Both the position numbers and the translations under genes were made by a program. From positions 1 through 61,699 of the IMG/VR virus record IMGVR_UViG_3300020141_000500: a stretch of DNA of 61,699 bases. The stretch is one strand, 5' to 3'. Source of the DNA: a virus (lineage: Duplodnaviria > Caudoviricetes). Shown in pieces: positions 1,670-50,664 of the stretch. The notes below the pieces were generated by a model. That model was given only the letters and a program-made list of their open reading frames with translations, had not been told where the DNA came from and did not search any database. Positions within the stretch are counted from its first letter, which is position 1. The number at the start of each line of letters is the position of its first letter.

Positions 1670-3406
1670 ATGAACAAACCTAGATTGCCATTTGATATAG
1701 AATTTTTGTTGGAAAGTATATTATATGAATCTCCTGACAGAATTGATTTGTCAGGAAATTCAAATGATAAAACAAAAAAATCTGATGCAGAAAGACTAAA
1801 CAGTCTTGGTGCAGCTGTGCCAAAAACTGGTGCAACATTCAAATATTTATCTGATGATGATTATGCGTTTTTCTTTGATGTTGAAACTGGTGTAATAATG
1901 TATGCAGAAAAAAATACCCATGGCAGCATGGAGGAAATGTTGCAAAATGCCGCACACAAAGCCACTTTATATGCCGCCACGTTCAAAAACATGTATAACA
2001 TCAAACGTGATGTGTTTGGTAATATATCTGCATATTCATACCACGAGAAAGAGGATGACGGTGATGATGCAGCAACTGTGGGGTTTGTTGGATTGCAGCA
2101 ACAAGGTGATGATGTTGAAACAGTTAGAAATTATTTACACAACAACAGAATACGTTTTCGTCAATTGAATATTCGAGGTAACTGGGACGATTCAGCCACT
2201 GTTCCGGCTGGTAGAATTTGGGTCAAAAAAAATGCAATTAGTTTTTGGAACAGCAAGGATGAAATTGTAAATGAAAATTTCCAACGTGTTGAAAAGTTGA
2301 TGAGTGCAATGAAACTTGATAAAACAAAGTTTGCTTATGAATTTATAGACACGAAAGGTTTGTTTGCATATTCAGAACTTGTGGGCAATTCAAACAAAGA
2401 AAAATTGAGTCCTGAAGAAATAAAAAAACTATTGGCGGCTCAACATCTGGATTCAAAAGCAAAGAAAAAATTGGCTGGATCAACATATAAAGCAGATCAC
2501 TTGAAAAAAGGTGCCAAAGGATTTGATTATGCTGCTCAAGCAAATGCAGCTGTACCAGCACTGGAAGGTCATATCAAACTAAAAGATTTGATAAATGAAG
2601 ATCCGGACGAAGTGGTTGATATGACAGGTCAAGAAATTTCTGACTGGACAGATGCAGATGCTGTTGCTTTTATTATCACAGAAAAATGCAGCATCATCAA
2701 TATGGGTGGAGTGCACAGTGACATTATGGATGCAATGGAAAATTTGTATATATATTTACTGGACCGCCCAAGTGCCAACGACGCAAGTTTGCAAAGAAGA
2801 CTTGAAAAGAATGGCATGGCTACCGACAATATAGTTGCGTTAAGAGAATTGTTGACGCAACCAAGTGCATTTCATGAATATTTAAAAAATGGTGGCAGAT
2901 CCGGAAACCAAGGTATCAATGTCAGAACCATACAAGGAACAATTTTTGGTCGTTTGTGGTATAGAAAGAAATTGATGAGTTTTTGGATCACTACACAAAA
3001 AGTTGTGAAAAATTGGAATTGGGTAAAAAACTTTTTCAACAACATGAACAAATTAACTGGAAACTTGAATGATTATGAAATTGATTGGTTGGAAAGAAGT
3101 CGTAATGCATCAATGACGCCATTGACCAAAGCAAGTGATGTTGATGCCAACACTGGCAAGCCAGATGCAAATCAAAAAGATTTTATTTCTACACTGTTTG
3201 GTGATGTAGAAAAAATCAAATCATTGCCACCAGAAGAAATTGAAAAATTGAATAAAAAAATTCATCTATTACCACCATCAAAAAAACGTGAAGCATTGTT
3301 GGCAATGGGATACAAAAATATAAAAGCAATTGAAATTGCAGATGCACTTGGCATGACTGTGGCAGAATTTAATAACATCATGAATGTGAATGAAGGAGAT
3401 ATATAA
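1670..3406 (+). CDS. hypothetical protein with two tandem copies of the same domain as 701..1582
   Basis: Copy 1 ESPD...GRIWVKKNAISFW and copy 2 EDPD...GRLWYRKKLMSFW are joined by IKLKDLINE (2573-2599). Confidence 0.85.
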   Translation: MNKPRLPFDIEFLLESILYESPDRIDLSGNSNDKTKKSDAERLNSLGAAVPKTGATFKYLSDDDYAFFFDVETGVIMYAEKNTHGSMEEMLQNAAHKATLYAATFKNMYNIKRDVFGNISAYSYHEKEDDGDDAATVGFVGLQQQGDDVETVRNYLHNNRIRFRQLNIRGNWDDSATVPAGRIWVKKNAISFWNSKDEIVNENFQRVEKLMSAMKLDKTKFAYEFIDTKGLFAYSELVGNSNKEKLSPEEIKKLLAAQHLDSKAKKKLAGSTYKADHLKKGAKGFDYAAQANAAVPALEGHIKLKDLINEDPDEVVDMTGQEISDWTDADAVAFIITEKCSIINMGGVHSDIMDAMENLYIYLLDRPSANDASLQRRLEKNGMATDNIVALRELLTQPSAFHEYLKNGGRSGNQGINVRTIQGTIFGRLWYRKKLMSFWITTQKVVKNWNWVKNFFNNMNKLTGNLNDYEIDWLERSRNASMTPLTKASDVDANTGKPDANQKDFISTLFGDVEKIKSLPPEEIEKLNKKIHLLPPSKKREALLAMGYKNIKAIEIADALGMTVAEFNNIMNVNEGDI

Positions 3407-3409
3407 TTT

Positions 3410-4366
3410 ATGGTAAGAACAATACCACTATATGGAAATCCAAATGGCCAAATTTTTGGTACAATAGGTTCATTGATAGAAATGAACGATGGATTGAAAT
3501 ATGTGAAAATATCCGGAGATTCTTCCAATGTTGGATGGCAAGTGTATAATGTTGCACCAACACCCACGCCTACGCCTACGCCAACTGCAACGCCAACTCC
3601 GACTGCAACGCCAACTCCGACGCCAACTCCGACGCCTACACCAACGACGGGTGGATCAACGCCAACGCCAACGCCAACAACATCAACGCTGTCAATAACA
3701 TATCAAACTCCGGATAATCAAACAGTGAGTGTTGGTTATTCGGTAGCGGGTGCTACTGTTTACGCTCCGGCTGGAGGAGCGTACACGGTGACTTGGGTAG
3801 TTTGGAACGGTAATGGTAGCCACAGTCCTAGAACTGTTTCAACTATCGGCGGAACTTTAACTGCGGGTGCGATACAAGGTTTTTCCGGTCCATCTGCAAT
3901 CGACGGTACTTTCACGGACAATGGTTCTGTCCACTACAACGACAGTGGTGGGGCGGGGTATTATAAATTTACAATAACTGTTGGTGCTGTTTCTATAAAT
4001 ACCGGATTTATTAGAGTAAATACACAAACCGTGACACTGGTTGGCACAGAGGAATGCAACTGCGCGTGCAAGGATGGTGGGGGTAACGTGGTTGGAACTT
4101 GGACACAGGGTGATACAATTTGCGAAGATGATTGCTGCAACTATGACTGCGATAATAACGGTGTGGGTTGCGTGGATGTGACCGGTGACATATCGCAATG
4201 CTGTAAGCGTTGTTGTGGCGGCGTTGATGAATATGACAACTGCGATTCTGCTGGTACGGCGTGCGGTCTGAAGTGCTACACTGACTGGTATTGCACCAGT
4301 GGAGATCGTATTTGCGAAACGTGCGATGTTTATGGATATGGTACTGTGAACAATCCACAGTTTTAA
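3410..4366 (+). CDS. putative fibre/decoration protein: N-terminal GxPxG...YxK...NxGW module, PT linker, beta-rich domain, Cys-rich C-terminus
   Basis: Long (PT)n run; 18 Cys in the region 4055-4324. Confidence 0.7.
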   Translation: MVRTIPLYGNPNGQIFGTIGSLIEMNDGLKYVKISGDSSNVGWQVYNVAPTPTPTPTPTATPTPTATPTPTPTPTPTPTTGGSTPTPTPTTSTLSITYQTPDNQTVSVGYSVAGATVYAPAGGAYTVTWVVWNGNGSHSPRTVSTIGGTLTAGAIQGFSGPSAIDGTFTDNGSVHYNDSGGAGYYKFTITVGAVSINTGFIRVNTQTVTLVGTEECNCACKDGGGNVVGTWTQGDTICEDDCCNYDCDNNGVGCVDVTGDISQCCKRCCGGVDEYDNCDSAGTACGLKCYTDWYCTSGDRICETCDVYGYGTVNNPQF

Positions 4367-4378
4367 TAAAAATTATTT

Positions 4379-5005
4379 ATGAACCCAGAAAATACAGACA
4401 ACAAAAATTTCCCATCATTGTTTGTTCAGGCTGAAAATTTAGTAAAGCAAGCAATATCCAGCGGCACAGACGCTTTGAAAGGAAAGCCGTTGGTCGCATC
4501 CACAGAAAAAGCCAAAGCTAGGCTGGACATATGTGCTGCATGTGAATTTTTTCATCAGGGCCGTTGCTTAAAATGTGGATGTTTTATGAATAAAAAAGCT
4601 CATTTGGAATCTGCCCAATGCCCACTAAACAAGTGGGGAGATTTGCAAAACCCATATTTACAGAAGTCAATCGCTGTGAACATTGATGATTTTCCTTCGC
4701 AAGAAAGAGAAACTATTCTTGCAATAGCCAATCATGCTGCTGATATTGGTAATACATTTTATCATAACAATATACCTTACAAGTCAAAGAAAAATGAAGA
4801 TGGTGGTGTGAGTATATTTTTATACAACAATGAACCAAGGCGGCACACAGGAACTATTACTTCGGGTTTTACTGCCGAAGAATTGATAGAATTTAACCAA
4901 TTGGTTCGAACATCAAAAAACACAGAAGATAAAGTGTTTTCTTTCAAAGACTCAAATTATAAAATCACCGTTGATGGAAACAAAATATCCATAAAGTATG
5001 CTTAA
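4379..5005 (+). CDS. Cys-cluster protein (DUF6171-like, CxxC...CxxCGC...CPxxKW)
   Basis: RLDICAACEF...RCLKCGCFM...CPLNKW motif. Confidence 0.65.
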   Translation: MNPENTDNKNFPSLFVQAENLVKQAISSGTDALKGKPLVASTEKAKARLDICAACEFFHQGRCLKCGCFMNKKAHLESAQCPLNKWGDLQNPYLQKSIAVNIDDFPSQERETILAIANHAADIGNTFYHNNIPYKSKKNEDGGVSIFLYNNEPRRHTGTITSGFTAEELIEFNQLVRTSKNTEDKVFSFKDSNYKITVDGNKISIKYA

Positions 5006-16667: not shown

Positions 16668-16844
16668 TTGATATATTTTATTGAGACATGTAGTCTCATG
16701 CATGTGACAAAATGATACACATAAAATATGTATTTTTTATTTGTTACGAGGTAAGAGTGTGACATTACATTTGGCACGAAACATGATAATGTGTATGTGC
16801 CGATGTTCATAATGAAGTCGGCATAAATAAAGGATACAATAAAT

Positions 16845-17291
16845 ATGTCACTAACTAAATACACACGGGATGAGTTTCTCACCCCTTTTGATAGATTGTT
16901 TGATGAAGTTTTCAATAACTTCGGAGTAACACCATATGCTGGTTCATATACAAAAACCAGTTTTCCCAAAGTGGATGTGGTTGAATATATAGATAAACTT
17001 GTTCTAGAAGCAGATGTTGCTGGACTAGACAAGGAAGATGTAAGTGTTGAACTAGAAGGCGATACTCTCACCATTCGTGGTGGAAAGAAGCCAGCATCAA
17101 CTGAAACAGACAATAATGCTCGTTATGTTTATAGAGAAATAAAGCGTTCAAGTTTTGTTCGCTCTTTTGCTGTTGGCGAGGGTATTGATAAAAGTAACAT
17201 AAAGGTTGATTATCAAAATGGAGCAATCAAGATTATATTACCCAGAATTAAGATTGAAGAACAAAAGCCACAAAAAATCAAGTTGCTATAA
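16845..17291 (+). CDS. hsp20: Hsp20/alpha-crystallin small heat-shock protein
   Basis: PKVDVVE, ADVAGLDKEDVSV, REIKRSSFVRSF and YQNGAIKIILPR motifs. Confidence 0.92.
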   Translation: MSLTKYTRDEFLTPFDRLFDEVFNNFGVTPYAGSYTKTSFPKVDVVEYIDKLVLEADVAGLDKEDVSVELEGDTLTIRGGKKPASTETDNNARYVYREIKRSSFVRSFAVGEGIDKSNIKVDYQNGAIKIILPRIKIEEQKPQKIKLL

Positions 17292-17329
17292 GATAAATGT
17301 TGACAATTGATATATCTTCATACAATATA

Positions 17330-17447
17330 TCAGTCTTAAAGGTTATATAAAGTTCCAATTCTTATGATAATTGGATGGTGGAGGGTGATGTTGAGTTCAA
17401 CCACCCCTAATTAAGCCCCACAGAAATGTGGGGTTTTTTGTTTTTTT
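17330..17447 (+). ncRNA. candidate small structured RNA
   Basis: TTGACA at 17300 upstream, two hairpins and a terminator; no long ORF. Confidence 0.3.
17413..17447 (+). terminator. intrinsic terminator
   Basis: gccccaca-gaaa-tgtggggt followed by T tracts. Confidence 0.85.
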
Positions 17448-17528
17448 CTATGAGTTGTATATATTTATTGTTATAACTTTATACAAAAATATATGAAAAA
17501 ATCAGAATTAAAGCAGTTGATTAGAGAA
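17429..17528 (+). repeat. 100-bp direct repeat, copy 1 (terminator tail, promoter motif, first 12 codons)
   Basis: 99/100 identical to 18220..18319. Confidence 0.92.
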
Positions 17529-18170
17529 GTTGTGCGAGAAGTATATTCTCAACAAGACGAAGGTCTTGTTGATAAGATTGGAGATTTTTTGACAGATCCA
17601 ACCGGAAGAAAGAGAAAAGCGGCGGATGCGGAAAGTCGCGAGGAAGAAAAATCTAAAAATGAAAAATTTAAACAATTTAAAGATACGATTCAACATAACT
17701 TAAAATCTATTCCTAAATATGTTGAGGCATTTACTGCCAAAGCACGTGAGGTTTATAAAGACGCGGAAGAAGCAAGAGAACGCGGTCACGGTAGGTCCGG
17801 ACCACAGTATCATCAAGGAAACGGCTATTATTCACGTGACGCTGGTCAAGATTATGAGTATTGGGAAAAACGCACTAAGGAACAAGACGCGGCACAAAAA
17901 GATAGTTATGACAATTGGAGAAGAAATTTGAAATCAATAGAACAAAAGTATGAAGATATCAAAAAATTTATTGATTATATTCAGGGACAATTTAGAACTG
18001 GTATAAAAGAGCTTGAACAATATGATAGCTATGATTCCGCCAAAAACATGTTTGCAAACTCCGAAGAATACACCAACGACCGGATTGACCGCATAGAGGA
18101 ATTTCGCAGTGAATATAGTATAAGACCCATAGGATATGAAAATGAATTTAAAAAGCTAGAAAAATTTTAA
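17493..18170 (+). CDS. MKKSELKQLIRE-leader protein (putative internal head protein)
   Basis: Leader shared with 18284 and 40703; highly charged helical body. Confidence 0.7.
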   Translation: MKKSELKQLIREVVREVYSQQDEGLVDKIGDFLTDPTGRKRKAADAESREEEKSKNEKFKQFKDTIQHNLKSIPKYVEAFTAKAREVYKDAEEARERGHGRSGPQYHQGNGYYSRDAGQDYEYWEKRTKEQDAAQKDSYDNWRRNLKSIEQKYEDIKKFIDYIQGQFRTGIKELEQYDSYDSAKNMFANSEEYTNDRIDRIEEFRSEYSIRPIGYENEFKKLEKF

Positions 18171-18201
18171 TAACTTAATATAACACACATATTACACAAA
18201 G

Positions 18202-18238
18202 AACCCCAAACATAAAGTTTGGGGTTTTTTGTTTTTTT
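18202..18238 (+). terminator. intrinsic terminator (26 bp identical to 18937..18962)
   Basis: aaccccaaac-ataaa-gtttggggtt plus T tract. Confidence 0.85.
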
Positions 18239-18319
18239 CTATGAGTTGTATATATTTATTGTTATAACTTTATACAAAAATATATGAAAAAATCGGAATT
18301 AAAGCAGTTGATTAGAGAA
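18220..18319 (+). repeat. 100-bp direct repeat, copy 2
   Basis: 99/100 identical to 17429..17528. Confidence 0.92.
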
Positions 18320-18883
18320 ACCGTTGAAGAAGTGCGCGTCATCAGCGAAGCCAATAAGATTGCAGCATATCTTAAATCAAATCCAAGATTGGTTAAATCG
18401 TTAATGGCACATGGTGTATTAACAGAAGCAGAAATGGGTCGTCGTGATTTTCTTAAAAAAATGGGAATGGGTCTTGCTGGGGCGGGACTTACCGCTTCCG
18501 GACTTAAGGGAGCTACTACTGGTGAAGGCTTGCCAGATATGAAGAGAGCATACACGGCACTGGACAGTAAATGGGCGCAAGACGCAATAATGAAAGAATT
18601 TAATTATGACGATACTCCAAGTTTACGAAAAGCATTCATGGCAGAACTGCGTAAAGTGTTTAATATAATGGAAAAATCTCTAAAAGACGTTTCTTCAAAA
18701 TCATTTGGCCAAGCTATAGCTGTACGAGTAGATGCTATCAATGACGAAGCCGAGCAGGGTCGCGCACATTCTGGTAAAAACCTAGAAAATTTGGATCTGG
18801 GATTAAAACGACTAGTCATTCGGGAACTTGAACGTGTTCAAAAAGATCTGCACTTCGCGTTGGCAGAAATATGTGGTTGGTAA
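18284..18883 (+). CDS. MKKSELKQLIRE-leader protein with internal twin-arginine signal-like segment
   Basis: LTEAE-MGRRDFLKKMGMGLAGAGLTASGLKGA. Confidence 0.75.
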   Translation: MKKSELKQLIRETVEEVRVISEANKIAAYLKSNPRLVKSLMAHGVLTEAEMGRRDFLKKMGMGLAGAGLTASGLKGATTGEGLPDMKRAYTALDSKWAQDAIMKEFNYDDTPSLRKAFMAELRKVFNIMEKSLKDVSSKSFGQAIAVRVDAINDEAEQGRAHSGKNLENLDLGLKRLVIRELERVQKDLHFALAEICGW

Positions 18884-18936
18884 TTATTCTAATTAGTTAA
18901 ATTCAAAATCTAATAACATTATAGTACAATCAACAA

Positions 18937-18969
18937 AACCCCAAACATAAAGTTTGGGGTTTCTTTTTT
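18937..18969 (+). terminator. intrinsic terminator
   Basis: Same hairpin as 18202, followed by a T tract. Confidence 0.85.
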
Positions 18970-18994
18970 ATAGTATATACTATACTTATATACT

Positions 18995-20512
18995 ATGAAC
19001 TTTTTAGCATTTTTAGTATTATTGAGTGCAATAGCAATATCTGCATGCGGTGCATATTTTAGTATCGTTGGATTAAAGTTGTTGTTTGTTGGTGGCGGCA
19101 TATCCATTATAATAATGGGAATTGCTCTTGAAGTTGGCAAATTTATTACCGCTACGTTTTTAAAACAAAAATGGAATGATATAACTTTGTGGATGAAAAC
19201 ATATATGGTTTTAGCCACAATGATACTTATGCTCATAACATCAATAGGTATATATGGATATTTGAGTGCGGGATATACCGCCACTTCTATTGCTGTACAA
19301 GGCTATGAACATCAAATAGAAGCAAATATAACCAATATAAAAGATATTGAGAAAGAAATAGCGTCTTTGAAGACATCAACTTATAATGAAGCAGAAACAC
19401 GGTCTATCGAGGACAACAGAAAGAAAATAATTGAACAGCGTACTTTGCTTATAAATCAAAAGAATCAGCAAGCAGAAACTATAAGAAAATCAACTGATAC
19501 AAACAGAGATGCGTCGTCTGATATAATGTCGGCAAAACAAGCATTGGAATTATCTAAATCATCTACAGATTCTGATATTGGTAGAGAACTTGAACAAATC
19601 AAGCTGTATAATTCACGACTTGAGATATTGGACAAAGAAGTACAAAAATGGATAGACCAAGGAAGTGGAAACATGTTCAAAAAAGGTGGCTTGGATAAAG
19701 CCCGAGAAATCAAACAATCGCAGCAGAAAGAACGTGATGACATTGATGCTCAAATAAAATCTTCACAAGACAGAATGGAAAAACTTCGTCAGCAATATGC
19801 TGGTCAAGTAAAAGAATATAATGATCGTGTGGCAGCAATTGAATCTCGTAGCAGATCTCAAAGAAGTGAAATTGACGCTAATATAAAAAATACTGAAAAA
19901 GAAGCTGCCGAAATTGCTGCGTCTATAATAGCATACAACAAAGAAACAGATGAAAAGATTGTTGCATTAAACACCAAAAAAGGTGAAATGACTGAACAAA
20001 GTAAACAAAAGATAACCGAATATCAAAATAATATACAAACGTTGCGAGCACAAAATACCGAAACACAAGAAAAGATTGTTCATACAGATGTTGGTACATT
20101 CAAGTTTATTGCGAAAAGTCTAAACATTCCATTGGACGATGCAGTTAATTATTTTATTTGGGCAATTATTGGAGTGTTTGATCCATTGGCAATATGTTTA
20201 ATTTTGGCGTTTAATGCATTGATTAAAAAAGATGAAAAATCCGAAAATAAACAACAACCAAAGACTGTGACAGAGCCAGAACCAACATCAACGCCGACTC
20301 CGACTCCGACGCCGACACCAAATCCAACCCCGACTGCATCATCCGAACCATCATCCACGCTGGTCGTAGAAAATATTTTGGTACAAGAACCAATTGCAAT
20401 TGATGCTATATCATCAGAGTCAGTTGATATAGACATACCACACATAGCATCGCCGCCCAAAGCACCAACCGCTCCACACGGAATAAAAAGCGGAAAAGTG
20501 TCTCCAAGATAA
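18995..20512 (+). CDS. membrane protein with about 3 N-terminal TM helices, long coiled coil, C-terminal TM helix and PT tail
   Basis: Hydrophobic segments at the N-terminus and at YFIWAIIGVFDPLAICLILAF; E/K/Q-rich middle. Confidence 0.75.
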   Translation: MNFLAFLVLLSAIAISACGAYFSIVGLKLLFVGGGISIIIMGIALEVGKFITATFLKQKWNDITLWMKTYMVLATMILMLITSIGIYGYLSAGYTATSIAVQGYEHQIEANITNIKDIEKEIASLKTSTYNEAETRSIEDNRKKIIEQRTLLINQKNQQAETIRKSTDTNRDASSDIMSAKQALELSKSSTDSDIGRELEQIKLYNSRLEILDKEVQKWIDQGSGNMFKKGGLDKAREIKQSQQKERDDIDAQIKSSQDRMEKLRQQYAGQVKEYNDRVAAIESRSRSQRSEIDANIKNTEKEAAEIAASIIAYNKETDEKIVALNTKKGEMTEQSKQKITEYQNNIQTLRAQNTETQEKIVHTDVGTFKFIAKSLNIPLDDAVNYFIWAIIGVFDPLAICLILAFNALIKKDEKSENKQQPKTVTEPEPTSTPTPTPTPTPNPTPTASSEPSSTLVVENILVQEPIAIDAISSESVDIDIPHIASPPKAPTAPHGIKSGKVSPR

Positions 20513-25530: not shown

Positions 25531-25980
25531 ATGAACAAGAAAGAACTTGTAGAAATCATCAGAACAGTTGTACGAGAAGAAATCAATGAATCTCTTCCTC
25601 AGTATCTCATGGAAGTATTGGCTGAACGAATCACCGCACAGCCGGTTATTACTGAGAGAAAAGAGTCAGATATACCAGTTGCACAAAGAAAAAAGCCTTC
25701 GGTCGCGTTTGAAGCGCCGATCAAGCAAGTTCCTGTTCAAGCACCAAGAACATTTTCTTCAAACCCAATATTTAACCAAATATTGAACGAGACAGTTGGA
25801 GGAATACCGGACGAAAGTTCTGTGTCTGCTCCATCTGCAATAGACACTATTAAAAATTTACCAAAAGAAGTGTTGGCAGAAAACAAGGACGTTGCTGCTG
25901 TAGCAAACGCCATGACCAGAGACTATTCAAAATTGATGAAGGCGATTGACTCCAAAGCCAAATCCAACAGACCGTTATAA
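25531..25980 (+). CDS. hypothetical protein with KELVEIIRTVVREE leader-like start
   Basis: ATATTTATA at 25509; overlaps the gp25 start. Confidence 0.7.
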   Translation: MNKKELVEIIRTVVREEINESLPQYLMEVLAERITAQPVITERKESDIPVAQRKKPSVAFEAPIKQVPVQAPRTFSSNPIFNQILNETVGGIPDESSVSAPSAIDTIKNLPKEVLAENKDVAAVANAMTRDYSKLMKAIDSKAKSNRPL

Positions 25981-40630: not shown

Positions 40631-40702
40631 TATATATTTCGTTTTTTTTTTGATATTATCATATATTTATTGATATAAGATTTAACAAACAAGCATAATA
40701 TT

Positions 40703-41269
40703 ATGAAAAGAAGCGAACTAAAACAATTGATTAGAGAAGCTATTGAAGAGCAAATGATCCAAGAATCGGAAGCCGTTGACAACTTAGTAAAACAAATTCA
40801 AGCATTGTCAAAAGAAGAACAGGGAATTCTTCAAAAGAAATTGACCGACTTGTTCAAAGCATCAAAGTCTGGTTCCTTGCAGGACGCATATAATGAGCTT
40901 GCAAAAAATGGTAAGATAGTTATCATGCGCAGCGAAAAAAATAGAAATCAATTGATTGGATTTTTACAGTATAAAGATCAATTTTTGAACGACGAAAAAT
41001 GCATAACCAGTAAAGAACACGTAAAATATAATGCGAACGCATTTGCGGAAGAATATCCAAACCTTGCGTTTGCGTTTAAAAATAATCCAGAATTGATGAT
41101 TCCGTCGGTCGGCGGCGGTGACGACAGAGTTCCCAGCCCGCTCAGAGGATATGGCACTTCTATGAAAGATCAAATAAATGGTCTCACGCGCTCTTGGAAA
41201 AAAAGACTTGGTGGGGCAGACATAAAAGTGGAACTTGATAAAAATCTTGAGCGTGACATGCCGAAGTAA
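40703..41269 (+). CDS. MKRSELKQLIRE-leader protein (putative internal head protein)
   Basis: Leader matches 17493 and 18284; has its own late motif (40663) and terminator. Confidence 0.7.
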   Translation: MKRSELKQLIREAIEEQMIQESEAVDNLVKQIQALSKEEQGILQKKLTDLFKASKSGSLQDAYNELAKNGKIVIMRSEKNRNQLIGFLQYKDQFLNDEKCITSKEHVKYNANAFAEEYPNLAFAFKNNPELMIPSVGGGDDRVPSPLRGYGTSMKDQINGLTRSWKKRLGGADIKVELDKNLERDMPK

Positions 41270-41311: not shown

Positions 41312-41343
41312 AAACCCGCCAAAATACGGCGGGTTTTTTATTT
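41312..41343 (+). terminator. intrinsic terminator
   Basis: aaacccgcc-aaaatac-ggcgggttt plus T tract. Confidence 0.85.
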
Positions 41344-42357: not shown

Positions 42358-45300
42358 ATGATAGATACATACGAAAAACTGAATACATCCTTTGCTCGCG
42401 TAGATTATATTGTTCATCTATCGGATGTTCATATTCGTTTGACAAAACGACATCAAGAATATCGCGAAGTGTTTGCTAAGATATATGAAGAAGTGAAAAA
42501 AACACCAGCAAACACAGTCATTATAAATACCGGAGATAGTTTTCACTCAAAATGCGACCTTTCGCCCGAGGCTGTGCAGATTGCAAGTGAGTTCTTCAAG
42601 AGTTTATCCGACTTGCGTCCTACAGTTGTTATTGCTGGCAATCATGATTGTTTGCTCACAAATGTTACTCGACTTGACAGCATTTCTCCTATTGTAGAAA
42701 ATTTGGCTCATGACAATCTTTATTATCTAAAAGAAAGCAAGTTGTATTCATTTGCCAATATTCTTATAAATAACATGTCTATTTTCACCGACCATACTTC
42801 ATTTATAAAGATGAAGGACGTGTCAAAGAAAATCAAGATAGAGTTTGATACAAAGATTGCTTTATTTCATGGTGGTGTATTTGACGCCAAGACTGATGTA
42901 GGTTATACAGTAACCAACAAGAGTATCATGAATGATATGTTTGATGGTCATGATATGGCATTGTTGGGTGATATTCATTTGGCACAAAATCTACAAATGT
43001 GTGATATAGCAGCAGAAAAACCAATCATTCGTTATGCTGGTTCGGTTATTCAACAAAATCATGGCGAAGCATTGCTTGGTCACGGCATTTGTTTGTGGGA
43101 CGTAAAGAACAGAGCATACAAGCATGTAGAAATACCAAATGATTATGGTTATTTTACTATTGATATTGATGACGGCAAGTTGATGACTGATATAAGCACA
43201 ATGCCCAAGAAGCCAAAACTTCGTGTGCGTTGCAAAGAAACTATTGCTACTGAACTAAAAAAGGTAGTAAATGAAATCAAAAAGACGCATGAAATCAGCG
43301 ACATTATTTATATGCGAGTTGATGGCGATGATGCTTCCAAAGTTGTGAGTGTTCAAGCTGCTGCCAACTTGAGTCAGATTGGCAATGTTGATTATCAAAA
43401 TAAACTTATTAGTGAAACACTCAAAGCTAAATATCCAGATATTATGGATGATGACACACTTGAGTCTGTTCATAAAATCAACAAAGACCTCAATACTGAT
43501 TTGAGTAAAGATGATACTGCTCGCAATATTCGTTGGAAGCCAATCAAGTTTGAGTTTAGTAATATGTTTAGTTATGGTGAAAACAATGTGATTGACTTTA
43601 CAAAATTATCAGATGTATACGGATTGTTTGCGTCGAATGCAAGTGGAAAATCTTCTCTTTTTGACGCATTGTGCTTTATCGCATTTGATAAATCTGCTAA
43701 AGCATTCAAAGCAACTCATGTGATGAACTCACAAAAAATGTCTTTTCATGGCAAGTTCACATTTGAGATAAATGATGTTCAATATATCATTGAGCGTAAA
43801 GGCATCAGAGATAAAAAAGGCAATGTAAAAGTTGATGTAAACTTCTATAAGATGGAGAAAGAAGAAAAGATTAGCCTCAACAGCGAAGCTCGCAGAAGCA
43901 CAAATGAAATCATTCGCGATTATATTGGTGATTATGATGACTTTGTATTGACCTCTCTTGCATTACAAGGCAATCAAGGTTCATTTGTTGAAATGGGTCA
44001 AACTGAACGTAAGGATTTGTTGTGCCAGTTCATTGGTCTAAATGTGTTTGATAAACTTGTAGTAAAAGGCAATGACAAACTAAAAGAACTAACAGGTGCC
44101 ATCAAGTCATTCAACAAAGAAAGCAATCAAGTCAAGATTGAGTCGAACAAAAATGATTTGGGATTGGCAGAGTCCAAACTTATTGATTTGACCACTCAAA
44201 AAGATTTTTACACAACAAAAAAGAATGAGTTTGACAACAAAATCAGCGAACAACAATCCAAGATTGTAAAACTTGAAAATGTGCCAACAAATGTAGTGGC
44301 TCTAAAGAAAGAACGCGAAACTTTGGAAACAAAAAATAGTCAATCCGTTGATGCCATTTCAGTTATTGACACAAACACAGAGTCAAAGAAAAAAGAATAT
44401 GTGGATGCGTCTAATAAAATATCTGCTTGTCCAAGTGATCTAAAAGAAAAATCAGACAAGCATGCAGGTTTGGTTCGTCAAAAAAATCGTCTTGAACAAG
44501 ACATGGAAAAGCTAAAGCTTGTGGTCAAAGAAAAACTCAAGAAGATAGAACATCTGTCCAACCACAAATATGATCCAAATTGTGAATATTGCTGTGATAA
44601 TGCGTTTGTAAAAGATGCTATATCTGCCAAAGATAGTTTGGAATCCGACAAAACTGATGCAAGAGAATTGTTTGATGCCATATCAACCATAAAAACACAG
44701 ATTGTAGAAGTTGAACCATTTGTAGCTCAATATGAACAAAGTGTGCTGCTCAAAGAAACCATCAATACACTCACAGCATTTATTTCCAAGAAAGAACTGG
44801 AGAAATCTAATCTAAACAATCTTATATCCAAAAACTCTAACAGAATAGTTGAGATTGATACTCTGGTTGAGTTGTATGAAAAGTCCAAAGAAATCGTAGA
44901 AAGCAACAAGATTGTTGAATCATCTATTTATGATTTGAAAAATGATGTTGCTACTATAACATCAAAACTAAAGAATATTGAACGAGAATATGTGGATGCT
45001 TATAGTCGTAAAGTATCATTGACTGACCAAATCAAAAGCATCGAAGAACAAATCAAAAAAGTAGAAGAGTATGAAAACGAGCTTGCTGCTTATCAATATT
45101 ATCTAACTTCAATTGGTAAAGATGGCGTGCCATACAAGATTATTTCAGATGCCATTCCAAGAATTGAACAAGAAGTAAATAATATATTATCTCAAATGGT
45201 TGAGTTTAGTATGAGCATTGAAACAGATGGCAAGAATGTCAATGTATATATCAAATATGATGATAAAAAATGGCCATTGGAACTATGTTCTGGCATGGAA

Positions 45301-45564
45301 AAGTTTGTTAGTGCTTTGGCTTTGAGAGTATCTTTGATCAACATCAGCAATCTACCGCGTTCCAACTTTTTGGTAGTTGACGAAGGAATGTCGGCCTTGG
45401 ATGCTTCAAATCTTCCTATGCTACATGCGCTGTTTGATTATCTAAAGAGCAGCTTTGATTTTATTATTATAATAAGCCATCTTGACGCTATGAGAGACAT
45501 GGTAGACAAGCAGCTGGAAATCAAGAAAGAAAACGGATTTAGCAAGATTGATAATAGCGTCTGA
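42358..45564 (+). CDS. fused SbcD/Mre11 nuclease and SbcC/Rad50 ATPase (gp47-gp46-like)
   Basis: SDVH, TGD, GNHD and GDIH phosphoesterase motifs; NASGKSS, Q-loop, CEYC hook, SGME, VVDEG and IISH. Confidence 0.9.
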   Translation: MIDTYEKLNTSFARVDYIVHLSDVHIRLTKRHQEYREVFAKIYEEVKKTPANTVIINTGDSFHSKCDLSPEAVQIASEFFKSLSDLRPTVVIAGNHDCLLTNVTRLDSISPIVENLAHDNLYYLKESKLYSFANILINNMSIFTDHTSFIKMKDVSKKIKIEFDTKIALFHGGVFDAKTDVGYTVTNKSIMNDMFDGHDMALLGDIHLAQNLQMCDIAAEKPIIRYAGSVIQQNHGEALLGHGICLWDVKNRAYKHVEIPNDYGYFTIDIDDGKLMTDISTMPKKPKLRVRCKETIATELKKVVNEIKKTHEISDIIYMRVDGDDASKVVSVQAAANLSQIGNVDYQNKLISETLKAKYPDIMDDDTLESVHKINKDLNTDLSKDDTARNIRWKPIKFEFSNMFSYGENNVIDFTKLSDVYGLFASNASGKSSLFDALCFIAFDKSAKAFKATHVMNSQKMSFHGKFTFEINDVQYIIERKGIRDKKGNVKVDVNFYKMEKEEKISLNSEARRSTNEIIRDYIGDYDDFVLTSLALQGNQGSFVEMGQTERKDLLCQFIGLNVFDKLVVKGNDKLKELTGAIKSFNKESNQVKIESNKNDLGLAESKLIDLTTQKDFYTTKKNEFDNKISEQQSKIVKLENVPTNVVALKKERETLETKNSQSVDAISVIDTNTESKKKEYVDASNKISACPSDLKEKSDKHAGLVRQKNRLEQDMEKLKLVVKEKLKKIEHLSNHKYDPNCEYCCDNAFVKDAISAKDSLESDKTDARELFDAISTIKTQIVEVEPFVAQYEQSVLLKETINTLTAFISKKELEKSNLNNLISKNSNRIVEIDTLVELYEKSKEIVESNKIVESSIYDLKNDVATITSKLKNIEREYVDAYSRKVSLTDQIKSIEEQIKKVEEYENELAAYQYYLTSIGKDGVPYKIISDAIPRIEQEVNNILSQMVEFSMSIETDGKNVNVYIKYDDKKWPLELCSGMEKFVSALALRVSLINISNLPRSNFLVVDEGMSALDASNLPMLHALFDYLKSSFDFIIIISHLDAMRDMVDKQLEIKKENGFSKIDNSV

Positions 45565-47856: not shown

Positions 47857-49809
47857 ATGAAAATTTTATATATAGCTCCGCATTTATCAACGGGTGGATG
47901 TCCACAATTTTTGTTTAAGAAGATACAGGTTTTACACAAAGACCATGAGATATATTGTATTGAATATGCAGACCACGGATGTTTCACAGTACAAAAGAAC
48001 AAAATAAAAGAAATTCTCAAAGACAGGTTGATTTCTGTGAATTATGATCGCTCAAAAATAGTTGATATAATCAAAGATTTGGACCCAGATGTGGTGCATC
48101 TGGAAGAAATGCCAGAATATTTCATGGACAATGACATTGCTAAAAAGATATACATCAAAGATAGACGATATAAAATCATTGAAACATCGCATGACAGCAG
48201 CTTTGATCCAAAAGGTAAAGTGTTCTTTCCAGACCGATTGATATATGTGAGCAAATATCAAAAAGAAAATCTCAAAGAAATTGATGTGCCATCCGAAGTT
48301 TGTGAATATCCTATTCTAATAAATCCAAGAAAGCCAAGAGAAGAAGCACTAAGAGTGTTGGGTCTTGATCCAAAGAAAAAGCATGTGATGCATGTTGGTT
48401 TGTTCACATCAAGAAAAAACCAAAAAGAAATTATTGAGTATGCCAGAATACTCAAAGACCAACCAATACAGTTCCATTTCATTGGAAATCAAGCGGACAA
48501 TTTTAGAAGCTATTGGGAACCATTGATGAAAAATTTTCCATCCAACTGCAAATGGTGGAATGAAAGAAAAGATGTAGATAATTTTTATCAAGCAGCCGAT
48601 TTGTTTCTGTTTGTGTCTAAGGATGAAAATGGAGACAAAGAAACAAGTCCATTGGTTATACGCGAAGCAATATCATACAATATACCAACGTTGATTTATA
48701 ATTCTCCTGTGTATATGGGAATGTATGACAAATATGAAAATATAAAATATCTTGATTATGATGACAAGGATGAAAATTTAAACAGAATACTAAAAACTCT
48801 AAATCTAACAGAACCAAAAAAAATGCACATATTTCAATCCAATTGGGACATGAACGAACAAAAGATGTACTACTCGGTGAATACCAATGTAGATTTTCCT
48901 ATAATAGTCGCGTTGAGAGAATACAAGTCCGACGCTGTGTTGTGGTCTACCACATACGAAACTTTTCCACCAAATTGCAATTTTTGGATGATTCCTGTCT
49001 CAAAGAGTAACCGAGATTACTCCACAGAAGAAACATTTTCTGGCATAAAGCTTTGCATATACAAAAAAGAAACGGGCGAACAGATTTACGAGCAACCATA
49101 TTTTTATAAATTTGCAAATGTTCCAACGGTCACTTTGAGCAATCGTGCTCCATACTATGATAACTATACAGAATTTTTTGTTCGCGACAAATACAAAGAA
49201 TGGTTGGGCAACAAGAAGTTTGATGTTGCGGTTGACGTTGGTGCAAATGTAGGCGTGTTTACGCGATATTTGATACACAATAAAATAGCAAAGAGGGTTG
49301 TGTCGGTTGAATGCGACTCCGCCGCTTTATTTGATTTGAAAAGAAACTACGAATTTAACGACAATGTGAAAATAATTGAAAAAGCATTAAGCGACACGAA
49401 CGATCCAATAACATTTTATCACTGCGAAGAAAATCCAATCGTAAGCAGCACAATTCCACCGGAAAAGCTAAAACAACACATGGCCGGTGTGAGGGGAAAT
49501 GTGAAAACCACGGTTGATGCTGTTACAATAAGGGATCTGGTTGATGAACTTGGTCAAATTGATTTGTTGAAGATTGACATCGAGGGAGGCGAATACAAAA
49601 TTATAGAAAAGTTGGAAACCAAGTTGTTTGACCATATAAATAACATATTCATTGAATGTCATTTTTTTGAGGAAGATTATAAAGAAAAGTATGTATCTCT
49701 ACTTGAAAAGTTGCGCAACAATGGATATGAAGTAAAAGAATATCTATCGAATCAGTCGAATAATGCCGGAACCAGTGAATGTATTTTTGCTACTAAAAAA
49801 TCTCAATAA
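47857..49809 (+). CDS. GT4-like glycosyltransferase fused to FkbM-family methyltransferase
   Basis: HLSTGG, RKNQ and ETSPLVIREA; VDVGANVG and LLKIDIEGGE. Confidence 0.85.
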   Translation: MKILYIAPHLSTGGCPQFLFKKIQVLHKDHEIYCIEYADHGCFTVQKNKIKEILKDRLISVNYDRSKIVDIIKDLDPDVVHLEEMPEYFMDNDIAKKIYIKDRRYKIIETSHDSSFDPKGKVFFPDRLIYVSKYQKENLKEIDVPSEVCEYPILINPRKPREEALRVLGLDPKKKHVMHVGLFTSRKNQKEIIEYARILKDQPIQFHFIGNQADNFRSYWEPLMKNFPSNCKWWNERKDVDNFYQAADLFLFVSKDENGDKETSPLVIREAISYNIPTLIYNSPVYMGMYDKYENIKYLDYDDKDENLNRILKTLNLTEPKKMHIFQSNWDMNEQKMYYSVNTNVDFPIIVALREYKSDAVLWSTTYETFPPNCNFWMIPVSKSNRDYSTEETFSGIKLCIYKKETGEQIYEQPYFYKFANVPTVTLSNRAPYYDNYTEFFVRDKYKEWLGNKKFDVAVDVGANVGVFTRYLIHNKIAKRVVSVECDSAALFDLKRNYEFNDNVKIIEKALSDTNDPITFYHCEENPIVSSTIPPEKLKQHMAGVRGNVKTTVDAVTIRDLVDELGQIDLLKIDIEGGEYKIIEKLETKLFDHINNIFIECHFFEEDYKEKYVSLLEKLRNNGYEVKEYLSNQSNNAGTSECIFATKKSQ

Positions 49810-49845
49810 TAAAATCTCAATAATAAAATCTCAATAATAAAATCT
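49797..49845 (+). repeat. 14-bp tandem repeat aaaatctcaataat x3.5
   Basis: Units at 49797, 49811, 49825 and a partial unit at 49839. Confidence 0.92.
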
Positions 49846-50664
49846 ATGGTTATATTTTTATATAGCGACAAAAACTGCGAACATCAAGCAATGGCTTGCA
49901 TCAAATCATTAACTCACAAAATTACAGATGATGTAAAGATTGTATACTATACAATCGGATTCGACAGCAGGTTTGAATTCAAGAACTTAAACAAAGTTCG
50001 TATTGAATACAAACCACAATATCCAACATTTCATTTTTATAAAGCCGAGCTGTCTTTACTTACTATGCAGATGTTTCCCAATGATTATTATCTATTTACA
50101 GACACCGACGTATTGTTCTCACGAAACTTCAACTTCAACGACCATAAATATAACGAGTCATATCCCATGGCAAGTTATGGTCCACATGAATATCCATTCA
50201 TTTGGCAAGAAGTAAACGGCGTTAAGATTATTTTTAATGAAAAGAAACTAATGACATACCACGGTGTAGCCGACAGAAGTATGAGATACTGCTGGTCTTG
50301 CTTTTTTGCATTTAATCCAAACTGCAAAGAGTTTTTTGAAGAATATACTTCAATTTGTCAGAACAAATATTTGCTTGATCGCCGCAAAGATTATTTTCCA
50401 TATGCCGACGAAACTGCATTTAATGTATGCTTGTGGAAGCGCGGGGCCACTAAGAATCTAAAACAAGGATTTGTAAACACACATTCACTAGAAACGGTAA
50501 AAATTGTGGAAGAAAGAAAAGCAAAAAATAAAGTGTTTATGAACAGTGTAGACGCATTTGGTTCAAGTTGGGAAGCCGTTGAAGATCCAGATAAAGTATT
50601 GCTATATCACGGATTTAAAGAAAAAATAGAAATGGATAAGACCGTTGATTATCTGTTGGCATGA
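49846..50664 (+). CDS. putative GT-A fold nucleotide-sugar transferase
   Basis: YLFTDTDV (DxD), DETAFNV and YHG motifs; located in the glycosylation cluster. Confidence 0.55.
   Translation: MVIFLYSDKNCEHQAMACIKSLTHKITDDVKIVYYTIGFDSRFEFKNLNKVRIEYKPQYPTFHFYKAELSLLTMQMFPNDYYLFTDTDVLFSRNFNFNDHKYNESYPMASYGPHEYPFIWQEVNGVKIIFNEKKLMTYHGVADRSMRYCWSCFFAFNPNCKEFFEEYTSICQNKYLLDRRKDYFPYADETAFNVCLWKRGATKNLKQGFVNTHSLETVKIVEERKAKNKVFMNSVDAFGSSWEAVEDPDKVLLYHGFKEKIEMDKTVDYLLA

Follow-up and report, generated by a model that had tools for sequence, protein, structure and literature searches.

The virus record IMGVR_UViG_3300020141_000500 of IMG/VR, analysed here over its entire 61.7 kb (61,699 nucleotides, hereafter the window), carries small gene cassettes that start with one and the same short protein leader and continue into unrelated payloads. 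Each cassette consists of a terminator hairpin with its T-run, a promoter-like ATATTTAT box, a fixed leader (MKKSELKQLIRE-x-I-x-E), a payload and a terminator; recombination within a module of about 100 nucleotides (nt), or within the shared terminator, adds, removes and swaps such cassettes at fixed hot spots. Hundreds of small, mutually unrelated proteins of the lineage conserve this leader in their amino-acid sequence. We propose, with a probability that we put at about two in three, that it is a T4-style capsid-targeting tag on swappable cargo, whose loading, cutting and injection we infer from sequence patterns and from the analogy with T-even phages. That the payloads might be arms-race effectors, such as anti-defence proteins, is suggested more weakly.

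Two cassettes, A and B, follow one another behind an hsp20 gene, and a third, C, stands further along the window. Their parts are:

17413..17436, + strand: intrinsic terminator before cassette A, whose T-run opens the repeat (-15.9 kcal/mol, z -3.8)
17429..17528, + strand: module copy 1, with the T-run, the ATATTTAT box at 17461-17468, the untranslated leader and codons 1-12 (17493-17528)
17493..18170, + strand: gene A, 225 amino acids (aa), leader and all-helical payload
18196..18232, + strand: terminator of cassette A, whose tail is the start of module copy 2 (-23 kcal/mol, z -6.7)
18220..18319, + strand: module copy 2, 99% identical to copy 1, with the joint 17504|18296 (see below) inside
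18284..18883, + strand: gene B, 199 aa, with the leader, a conserved spacer, a signal-like stretch of the twin-arginine translocation (Tat) type and a variable C-terminal part
18440..18505, + strand: residues 53-74 of B (GRRDFLKKMGMGLAGAGLTA), a stretch resembling a Tat signal, with V-L-T-E48 before it
18936..18962, + strand: terminator of cassette B, with a 26-nt core identical to that of the cassette A terminator
40637..40739, + strand: third module copy, 74% identity, with its ATATTTAT box at 40663
40703..41269, + strand: gene C, 188 aa (MKRSELKQLIREAIEE...), between a RuvC-like gene and the primase gene
41312..41336, + strand: terminator of cassette C (-15.9 kcal/mol, z -3.9)

The first two module copies (17429-17528 and 18220-18319) form a 100-nt repeat at a spacing of 791 nt. 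From the terminator T-run it passes over the box (at 17461 and 18252) and an untranslated leader of 24 nt into the MKKSELKQLIRE codons, and it ends after the twelfth codon; repeat-finding stretches it to 119 nt at 92% identity. A preliminary description of this DNA had placed a 100-bp, 99% identical repeat over a terminator tail, a motif and leader codons, which is borne out by these figures, the sole mismatch being a synonymous change of a serine codon (TCA/TCG). Within the window there are exactly two occurrences of a 24-nt core and exactly two of the 36-nt leader pattern, with none expected from 100 shuffles. Past the leader, the payloads are unrelated, as that description also had it: the BLASTP alignment of A and B is confined to their N-termini and profile-profile comparison restricts it to residues 1-17. 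The common 26-bp terminator that it reported is equally there, the terminators at 18202-18234 and 18937-18969 being 94% identical over 33 nt with their first 26 nt identical. The three hairpins of the hsp20 site beat their shuffled counterparts (z -3.8, -6.7 and -4.3), and all three are among the seven terminators found by a terminator scan, for 1.2 expected. The search of the genome for further modules, which it had recommended, yielded the diverged third copy at 40637-40739, overlooked until then, which heads gene C.

That the cassettes move is best seen at the hsp20 site, for which the conserved 505-aa gene downstream served to collect 15 related loci, two of them without upstream DNA. The frame of the site in the window is the following:

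16845..17291, + strand: hsp20 gene, the conserved left flank (Pfam HSP20, 2.4e-18; 71-99% identity in relatives)
17440..18986, + strand: two-cassette insert, at which the BLASTN alignments of L046, L047, L048 and L059 stop (about 17439-17453) and resume (18963-18987)
18995..20512, + strand: gene of a 505-aa membrane and coiled-coil protein, the conserved right flank, syntenic with the peptide deformylase gene and genes downstream

The order kept in relatives is hsp20, a variable stretch, the 505-aa gene, peptide deformylase and further genes. Relatives whose flanks are 81-95% identical lack 17440-18986; since the homology of empty-site relatives ends at 17439 and restarts at 18987 (BLASTN), this segment is an insert. 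The site holds A and B in the window, and in L045 an ortholog of A alone, where the terminator copies of 18234 and 18937 are joined so that exactly the B unit is gone (BLASTN). It is empty, with about 170-230 nt, in L046, L047, L048, L051, L052 and L059. The B-only allele comes from run X4, a lake metagenome of another study: a contig of 6,686 nt (depth 18.5) goes from hsp20 to 17504, continues at 18296 into B and reaches the 505-aa gene. The joint 17504|18296 skips 791 nt without any added letter, with 24 nt fitting either side, and lies inside the leader codons; it is the 791-bp deletion for which the preliminary description had proposed to check reads. About 2% of positions differ between this contig and the window, so that it represents a related strain, another molecule. 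Other relatives carry at this place genes devoid of the leader, a CCA-adding/poly(A)-polymerase-type gene in L050 (3654-4934) and a full Hsp70 gene (about 3023-4882; Pfam 1e-258) in L054-L057 and partly in L058. Breaks between alleles fall within either of the two shared parts, the module or the terminator. The content of the hsp20 site thus varies among relatives, the opposite of the fixed gene content that would have spoken against an exchange system. Of the recombination-driven plug-in array first proposed, the exchange itself stands, with A+B, A-only, B-only and empty alleles, whereas the comparison with T4 that went with it is one that we can only infer. In run X13, an RNA library, contigs cover hsp20 and B (18287-18942) and leave A uncovered; such contigs do not prove transcription, and the gap over A, like the holes in run X3, counts as evidence of nothing.

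The interval between the RuvC-like gene and the primase gene is a second hot spot. Among 39 loci fetched through the RuvC-like gene, 29 extend to the primase gene; a leader gene occupies the interval in 22 of the 29, other open reading frames (ORFs) occupy it in three and nothing in four, counts that are upper bounds, as one virus may have been sampled twice, the number of payload clusters being unaffected. With C, the 22 leader proteins of this site fall into nine unrelated payload clusters. C and the protein of contig G004 at the same place have residues 1-16 in common and nothing else. In L066-L068 (3105-3908), a gene of the GIY-YIG/NUMOD3 homing-endonuclease type adjoins the leader gene at this site, a possible second driver of exchange there.

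How far the leader extends beyond these two sites was assessed at the DNA and at the protein level. A degenerate DNA pattern for 12 leader residues matched 36 stretches of viral contigs in IMG/VR; the proteins from these matches and the three of the window amount to 31 distinct sequences in 21 payload clusters. Among them the leader codons switch across synonymous families (Ser TCN/AGY, Leu CTN/TTR, Arg CGN/AGR) and the peptide stays constant, which argues for selection on the peptide and not on the DNA, an argument limited by the pattern itself, which admits this peptide only. A profile built on residues 1-32 of 27 leader proteins, run over 1.84 billion cluster representatives, retrieved 494 representatives (clusters at 50% identity) with E<=0.001. 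We considered more closely 147 new sequences among the best 150 of the 494. The leader is the very N-terminus in 138 of the 147 and lies a few to 36 residues inside in eight, which are probably mis-called starts. Its consensus is M-K-K-S-E-L-K-Q-L-I-R-E-[VCET]-[IV]-x-E-[VI]; in the 138, I10, R11 and E12 are kept in 137, 132 and 137 sequences, I/V14 in 121 and E16 in 104. The 133 leader proteins of at least 60 aa make 99 payload clusters (median length 112 aa), and of 92 submitted to Pfam, 88 belong to no family and four have marginal matches. Arrays are also found in other contigs, with two adjoining leader genes in G001 and three back-to-back in G003.

Some variants of this arrangement deserve mention. 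In seven of the 147 sequences (P0012, P0014, P0018, P0040, P0113, P0117 and P0128) a second full leader, with its initial Met, lies inside the ORF; these double-leader ORFs may be fused cassettes or polyproteins cut by a protease. In P0018, a Tat-like stretch comes after the internal leader. In the window itself, a 149-aa ORF at 25531-25980, immediately upstream of a gp25-like baseplate gene, starts with MNKKELVEIIRTVVREEI, of which 10 of 17 positions match A (by eye). A ATATTTAT box precedes it, and relatives conserve it (L059 6833: MKKQELVEIIRTLVKEE); a search with the leader profile gave no match to it at E<=1, and it belongs to no PHROG family. The adjoining genes at 701-1582 (293 aa) and 1670-3406 (578 aa) have a common N-terminus, M(S/N)KPRLP(L/F)DIEFLLE..., and then differ; they are possibly another pair with a shared start.

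The ATATTTAT box of the module is found at other genes as well. It occurs 16 times on the + strand of the window versus 7 on the - strand; of the plus-strand boxes, 12 stand 12-40 nt upstream of gene starts, including genes of the baseplate region and the three cassettes. In G004 it precedes the starts of portal, o211 and o212 by 14-39 nt. Most of the sites have no -35-like box upstream, as judged by eye; T4 late promoters likewise lack one. No Shine-Dalgarno sequence is evident upstream of the start codons (by eye), and a sigma-70 scan gave no site in 17440-17492 or 18231-18283. ATATTTAT is a promoter-like box that occurs genome-wide and is common to cassettes and virion genes. A promoter of the Bacteroidota type, with TTTG about 19 nt upstream of the box, was considered and not adopted: by eye, a TTTG is found in the 30 nt before the box in only 4 of the 12 gene-proximal cases, counting the two cassette copies. 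At about 49790-49845, at least three head-to-tail copies of a unit of about 15 nt (AATCTCAATAATAAA) immediately precede the gene at 49846.

As to the virus, all large ORFs of the window are on the + strand, and its completeness is estimated at 27%. PHROGs matches comprise baseplate wedge proteins, PhoH, primase, glycosyltransferases and, at the 3' end, the large terminase; Pfam matches comprise Hsp20, peptide deformylase and UDP-galactopyranose mutase. In a comparison of terminases, Microcystis phage Mel-JY01 (51%) and Flavobacterium phage immuto (50%) come out as the closest cultured phages, with T4-like cyanophages next. Near-identical DNA is present in freshwater and lake metagenomes of several studies, with contigs in runs X2 and X3, of the study from which the record possibly stems, and in X4, of another one. 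Taken together, the terminase relatives and these metagenome matches identify an uncultured freshwater myovirus, distantly related to T4, of which the window is a fragment. Between 16800 and 19100 no DNA similarity to phage records was found, Rfam gave nothing on 16700-19100, and no tRNA was detected in the window.

Two further features of the window are set down here. One ORF of 1068 aa (42358-45564) is SbcD-like over residues 13-325 and SbcC-like over 294-1066 (PHROGs), and looks like fused equivalents of T4 gp47 and gp46. Between hsp20 and the insertion point, an intergenic element of about 145 nt (17296-17440) is kept in seven of the seven aligned sequences. It has an invariant GTTGACAATTGA...CATACA stretch, with a sigma-70-like -35 box, a hairpin of equally invariant sequence (GGTGGAGGGTG...CACCCC), and a terminator in which the changes are compensatory; the stem of one hairpin is wholly different among relatives and still pairs (TCCAATT/AATTGGA, GTCTC/GAGAC, ACTTCT/AGAAGT). 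Seven of its 40 predicted pairs are changed on both sides, and neither Rfam nor the tRNA search matched it. This element downstream of hsp20 is a candidate phage small RNA.

The proposed link between the leader and the phage head comes from its end and from its neighbours in related contigs. According to PMC9026906, T4 gp21 cuts after L/I-X-E, the capsid-targeting sequences (CTSs) of internal proteins are N-terminal propeptides of 10-19 residues, and in IPIII the targeting determinants are residues 4 and 7, those of processing residues 8 and 10. The leader ends with I10-R11-E12 and again with [IV]14-x-E16, a sequence pattern of the L/I-X-E type. A protease of the gp21 type (Peptidase_S77, PF03420) is over the cut-off in four of five long contigs that are related or leader-bearing, the fifth being a 27% fragment; the protease of the head module matches the PHROG head maturation protease at 1.5e-53. 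In G004 the head genes are in the order terminase, portal, o211, o105 (MTRNELKQIIRE...), o163 (MKDTKQIIRELVEEVIEE...), o171 (...KKIINE) and protease, then o212 (...LLKQLISE), o150, o415 and the major capsid protein. G004 and G005 both have a leader gene in the portal-protease interval; G005, 89% identical to the window at the 505-aa gene, has a G004-like head arrangement with MTKSELKQLIRE. In T4 this position between portal and protease is that of the prohead core genes 67 and 68, so that by gene order the leader proteins of G004 and G005 take the place of these two genes.

The other proteins of the head module have similar sites near their N-termini (QIIRE, KKIINE and LLKQLISE). The major capsid protein has ILLE52 and KQLIDE61, and the N-terminus of mature T4 gp23 maps by alignment to about residue 49; the counterpart in the capsid protein of the immuto isolate is ILENQAKQIVSE. 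The leader resembles, by its LKQ-hydrophobic-I-x-E form, N-terminal stretches of the scaffold-like and capsid proteins of its own lineage. In the AlphaFold model of A, residues 3-18 are helical, and L6, L9, I10, V13 and I14 would share one face of this helix. A complex prediction of the G004 leader protein with two scaffold-like neighbours scored 0.00, without controls, and counts neither way. In the mechanism that we propose, the amphipathic helix of the leader would take the protein into the prohead core, as does the T4 CTS; the gp21-type prohead protease would cut it after E12 and/or E16, at the L/I-X-E sites; and the payload would remain in the head to enter the host with the DNA.

As to the payloads, A, B and C have no family in Pfam, PHROGs and NCBIfam. 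A has six homologs and is modelled as long helices (AlphaFold, predicted local distance difference test, pLDDT, 75.8), with no PDB fold match at E<=0.001 but generic coiled coils. Compared with its ortholog in L045, it has diverged by 0.20 at nonsynonymous sites (dN) and by 0.155 at synonymous ones (dS), i.e. a dN/dS of 1.30 by a crude estimate, versus 0.15, 0.00 and 0.05 for three flanking genes, a contrast that would suit an arms race; the divergence is patchy, residues 101-125 being identical and 126-150 only 24% identical. B has four homologs, in which residues 1-75 are nearly invariant and the remainder divergent, and its structure model is poor (pLDDT 49). ESM Atlas gave no usable feature match for A and for residues 78-199 of B, the structural rows being generic helical bundles below threshold. 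For the Tat model TIGR01409 (cut-off 16.7), B scores 15.1 bits and its homologs P0003, P0004 and P0005 score 17.1, 17.6 and 19.1. This Tat-like signal is internal in B (residues 53-74), and a cut at V-L-T-E48 would be needed to place it at the N-terminus. In 157 leader proteins scanned, a Tat-like stretch was seen in the B family and one other only, and a membrane-like segment in four.

These observations could be combined into a broader scheme, which we regard as unlikely in its entirety, where the leader is the address label for cargo of the whole lineage and the B family is a cargo exported in two stages. Hundreds of cargo families would be loaded into heads, the repeated DNA module keeping the label in frame on swaps; B would be packed via its leader, and the head protease would trim it at V-L-T-E48, exposing the twin-arginine signal as its N-terminus. 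Once B is injected with the DNA, the host Tat system would export it, and its action would be in the periplasm or the envelope. We know of no phage-injected protein that is routed via the host Tat pathway, a point at which no literature search was aimed.

Several observations weigh against the leader being a capsid-targeting tag of the T4 kind. Over 30 aa, it is only 21-26% identical to the N-termini of ipII and ipIII, with M1, K2 and two Glu columns as the sole common positions. T4 internal proteins are basic, whereas the payloads here are as often acidic as basic (of 132 isoelectric points, 55 are below 6, 22 between 6 and 8, and 55 above 8). The record ends inside the terminase gene, so that the head module of this very virus is not included. 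A late-promoter role of ATATTTAT is assigned to it by association only, and the box lies within 70 nt upstream in only 9 of 29 distinct leader genes of the DNA scan; many of the genes that lack a nearby box are inside operons. Part of the near-invariance of the leader stems from the pattern and profile queries themselves. Its DNA pattern, with up to 3 mismatches, is absent from immuto and Mel-JY01; the profile found none in immuto and one weak match (E 0.026) in a 548-aa ORF of Mel-JY01. A tblastn search with the 26-aa leader and with the 99-aa leader protein of the head module gave nothing in 50,697 phage records. Finally the divergence of A fits diversifying selection or segment replacement, as seen in one pair. 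A full-text literature search for the leader string returned no paper, and the literature found on capsid targeting, internal proteins, hypervariable loci and propeptides is T4 and giant-phage work only.

It is rather unlikely that the leader proteins are accessories of the prohead core or scaffold, similar to T4 gp67 and gp68, that would be cut and cleared after a role in assembly only. The position of leader genes in the portal-protease interval of G004 and G005 would fit, as would the LKQ..I.E stretch shared with scaffold-like neighbours and the long helices of A, which are usual in scaffolds. However, assembly proteins are core genes, while close relatives have payloads without homology to one another, or often none; the payloads make 99 clusters among 133 proteins, A shows a dN/dS of 1.30, and the cassettes of the window are outside the head module. 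We find it slightly less probable still that the leader is a tag for another destination, such as a chaperone, the Tat route or the membrane, a phage compartment or a host target common to these proteins. The first hot spot does adjoin hsp20, with Hsp70 there in four to five relatives, B has its Tat-like signal, and the amphipathic helix 3-18 could dock on many partners; but the RuvC-primase hot spot has no chaperone neighbour, Tat-like stretches (the B family and one other) and membrane-like segments (four) are rare among the 157 proteins, and such a destination would account neither for the I-x-E ends and the gp21-type protease nor for the place of leader genes in the head module.

Two other explanations are less probable still. 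The conserved start could be a nucleic-acid element, for translation initiation or mRNA stability in genes without a Shine-Dalgarno sequence, copied along with the promoter. The 99% DNA identity of the A and B copies, which includes the untranslated part, and the absence by eye of a Shine-Dalgarno-like sequence before the start codons are in its favour; we nevertheless hold it for very improbable, since the peptide is kept across contigs despite two- and three-base switches of codon family at Ser and at Arg, the DNA upstream of leader genes differs widely, and some leaders are internal to longer ORFs. Least credible is that A and B are tandem paralogs diverged past recognition, the starts of which would have been homogenised by gene conversion without any exchange of cassettes: they do stand in tandem and in one orientation, are close in size and are both helical, but profile-profile comparison finds nothing past residue 17, A-only, B-only and empty alleles exist, and the same leader is borne by nine unrelated payloads at the RuvC-primase site.

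If the leader is the capsid-targeting tag that we favour, and loads the head, one pattern of 16 residues would flag, in environmental phages, about 500 families of proteins that are candidates for injection, and the question of what phages inject besides DNA would become directly searchable. The hsp20 locus is a swap caught in natural populations, and as the recombination joint lies inside the codons of the tag, it provides a concrete mechanism by which cargo is exchanged and the address retained. The Tat-bearing cargo B further offers a testable idea on where injected proteins can go.

Among known systems, the nearest at the protein level is the variable internal protein (Ip) locus of T-even phages (PMC3012670, PMC9026906, PMC12373910). 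About 10 Ips are reported for T-evens in PMC12373910, and as far as this account goes targets are known for three only, T4 Ip1-3, all of them restriction enzymes. As with these proteins, a short N-terminal leader is here the sole similarity among unrelated small proteins—T4 ipII and ipIII both begin with MKTYQEFIAE in the T4 record—and the leader ends with hydrophobic-I-x-E, matching the gp21 motif L/I-X-E given in PMC9026906. The genes likewise lie in hot spots that vary between relatives, in a lineage that has a gp21-type protease. The scale is unlike, with 494 clusters at 50% identity here versus the about 10 Ips of PMC12373910. Unlike the T-even CTS too, the leader is of 12-16 aa with another sequence, of which MK and the I-x-E end alone correspond, and belongs to a distant freshwater lineage.

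The nearest counterparts at the DNA level are the promoter-early and promoter-middle stem-loops (PeSL and PmSL), which Arbiol (2010) and Comeau (2014) reportedly described as mediating modular shuffling in T4-like genomes. The PeSL/PmSL elements are promoter-terminator elements at indel boundaries in such genomes, as presented in PMC4122927. Like the elements of that account (PMC4122927), the module has a stem-loop terminator directly before a promoter and a start codon and is repeated between variable ORFs; it also stands at indel or replacement boundaries, here 17439/18987, 18234/18937 and the joint 17504|18296. The PeSL promoter differs in being sigma-70-like and early (-35/-10 boxes, N17 spacer), whereas the module has the ATATTTAT box of structural genes. 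The module moreover lacks an evident Shine-Dalgarno sequence, and unlike PeSL/PmSL its repeat extends into the coding region, so that recombination preserves the protein tag in frame.

A third parallel is found in giant phages. In phiKZ, 201phi2-1 and SPN3US, many head-packaged proteins are described as cut after Glu at a minimal motif by a gp21-like protease, and paralogs among them have identical N-terminal residues with two cut sites (PMC5694885). The ejection or inner-body proteins of these phages thus resemble the leader proteins by an N-terminal propeptide with a Glu cut motif, the leader also having two candidate sites; they differ by their motifs (S/A-X-E or A-X-E), by propeptides often longer than 100 aa, and in having no swappable stand-alone cassettes. 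By every sequence-level criterion of function applied here, the leader system matches the Ip/CTS system of T-even phages, without being a sequence member of that family.

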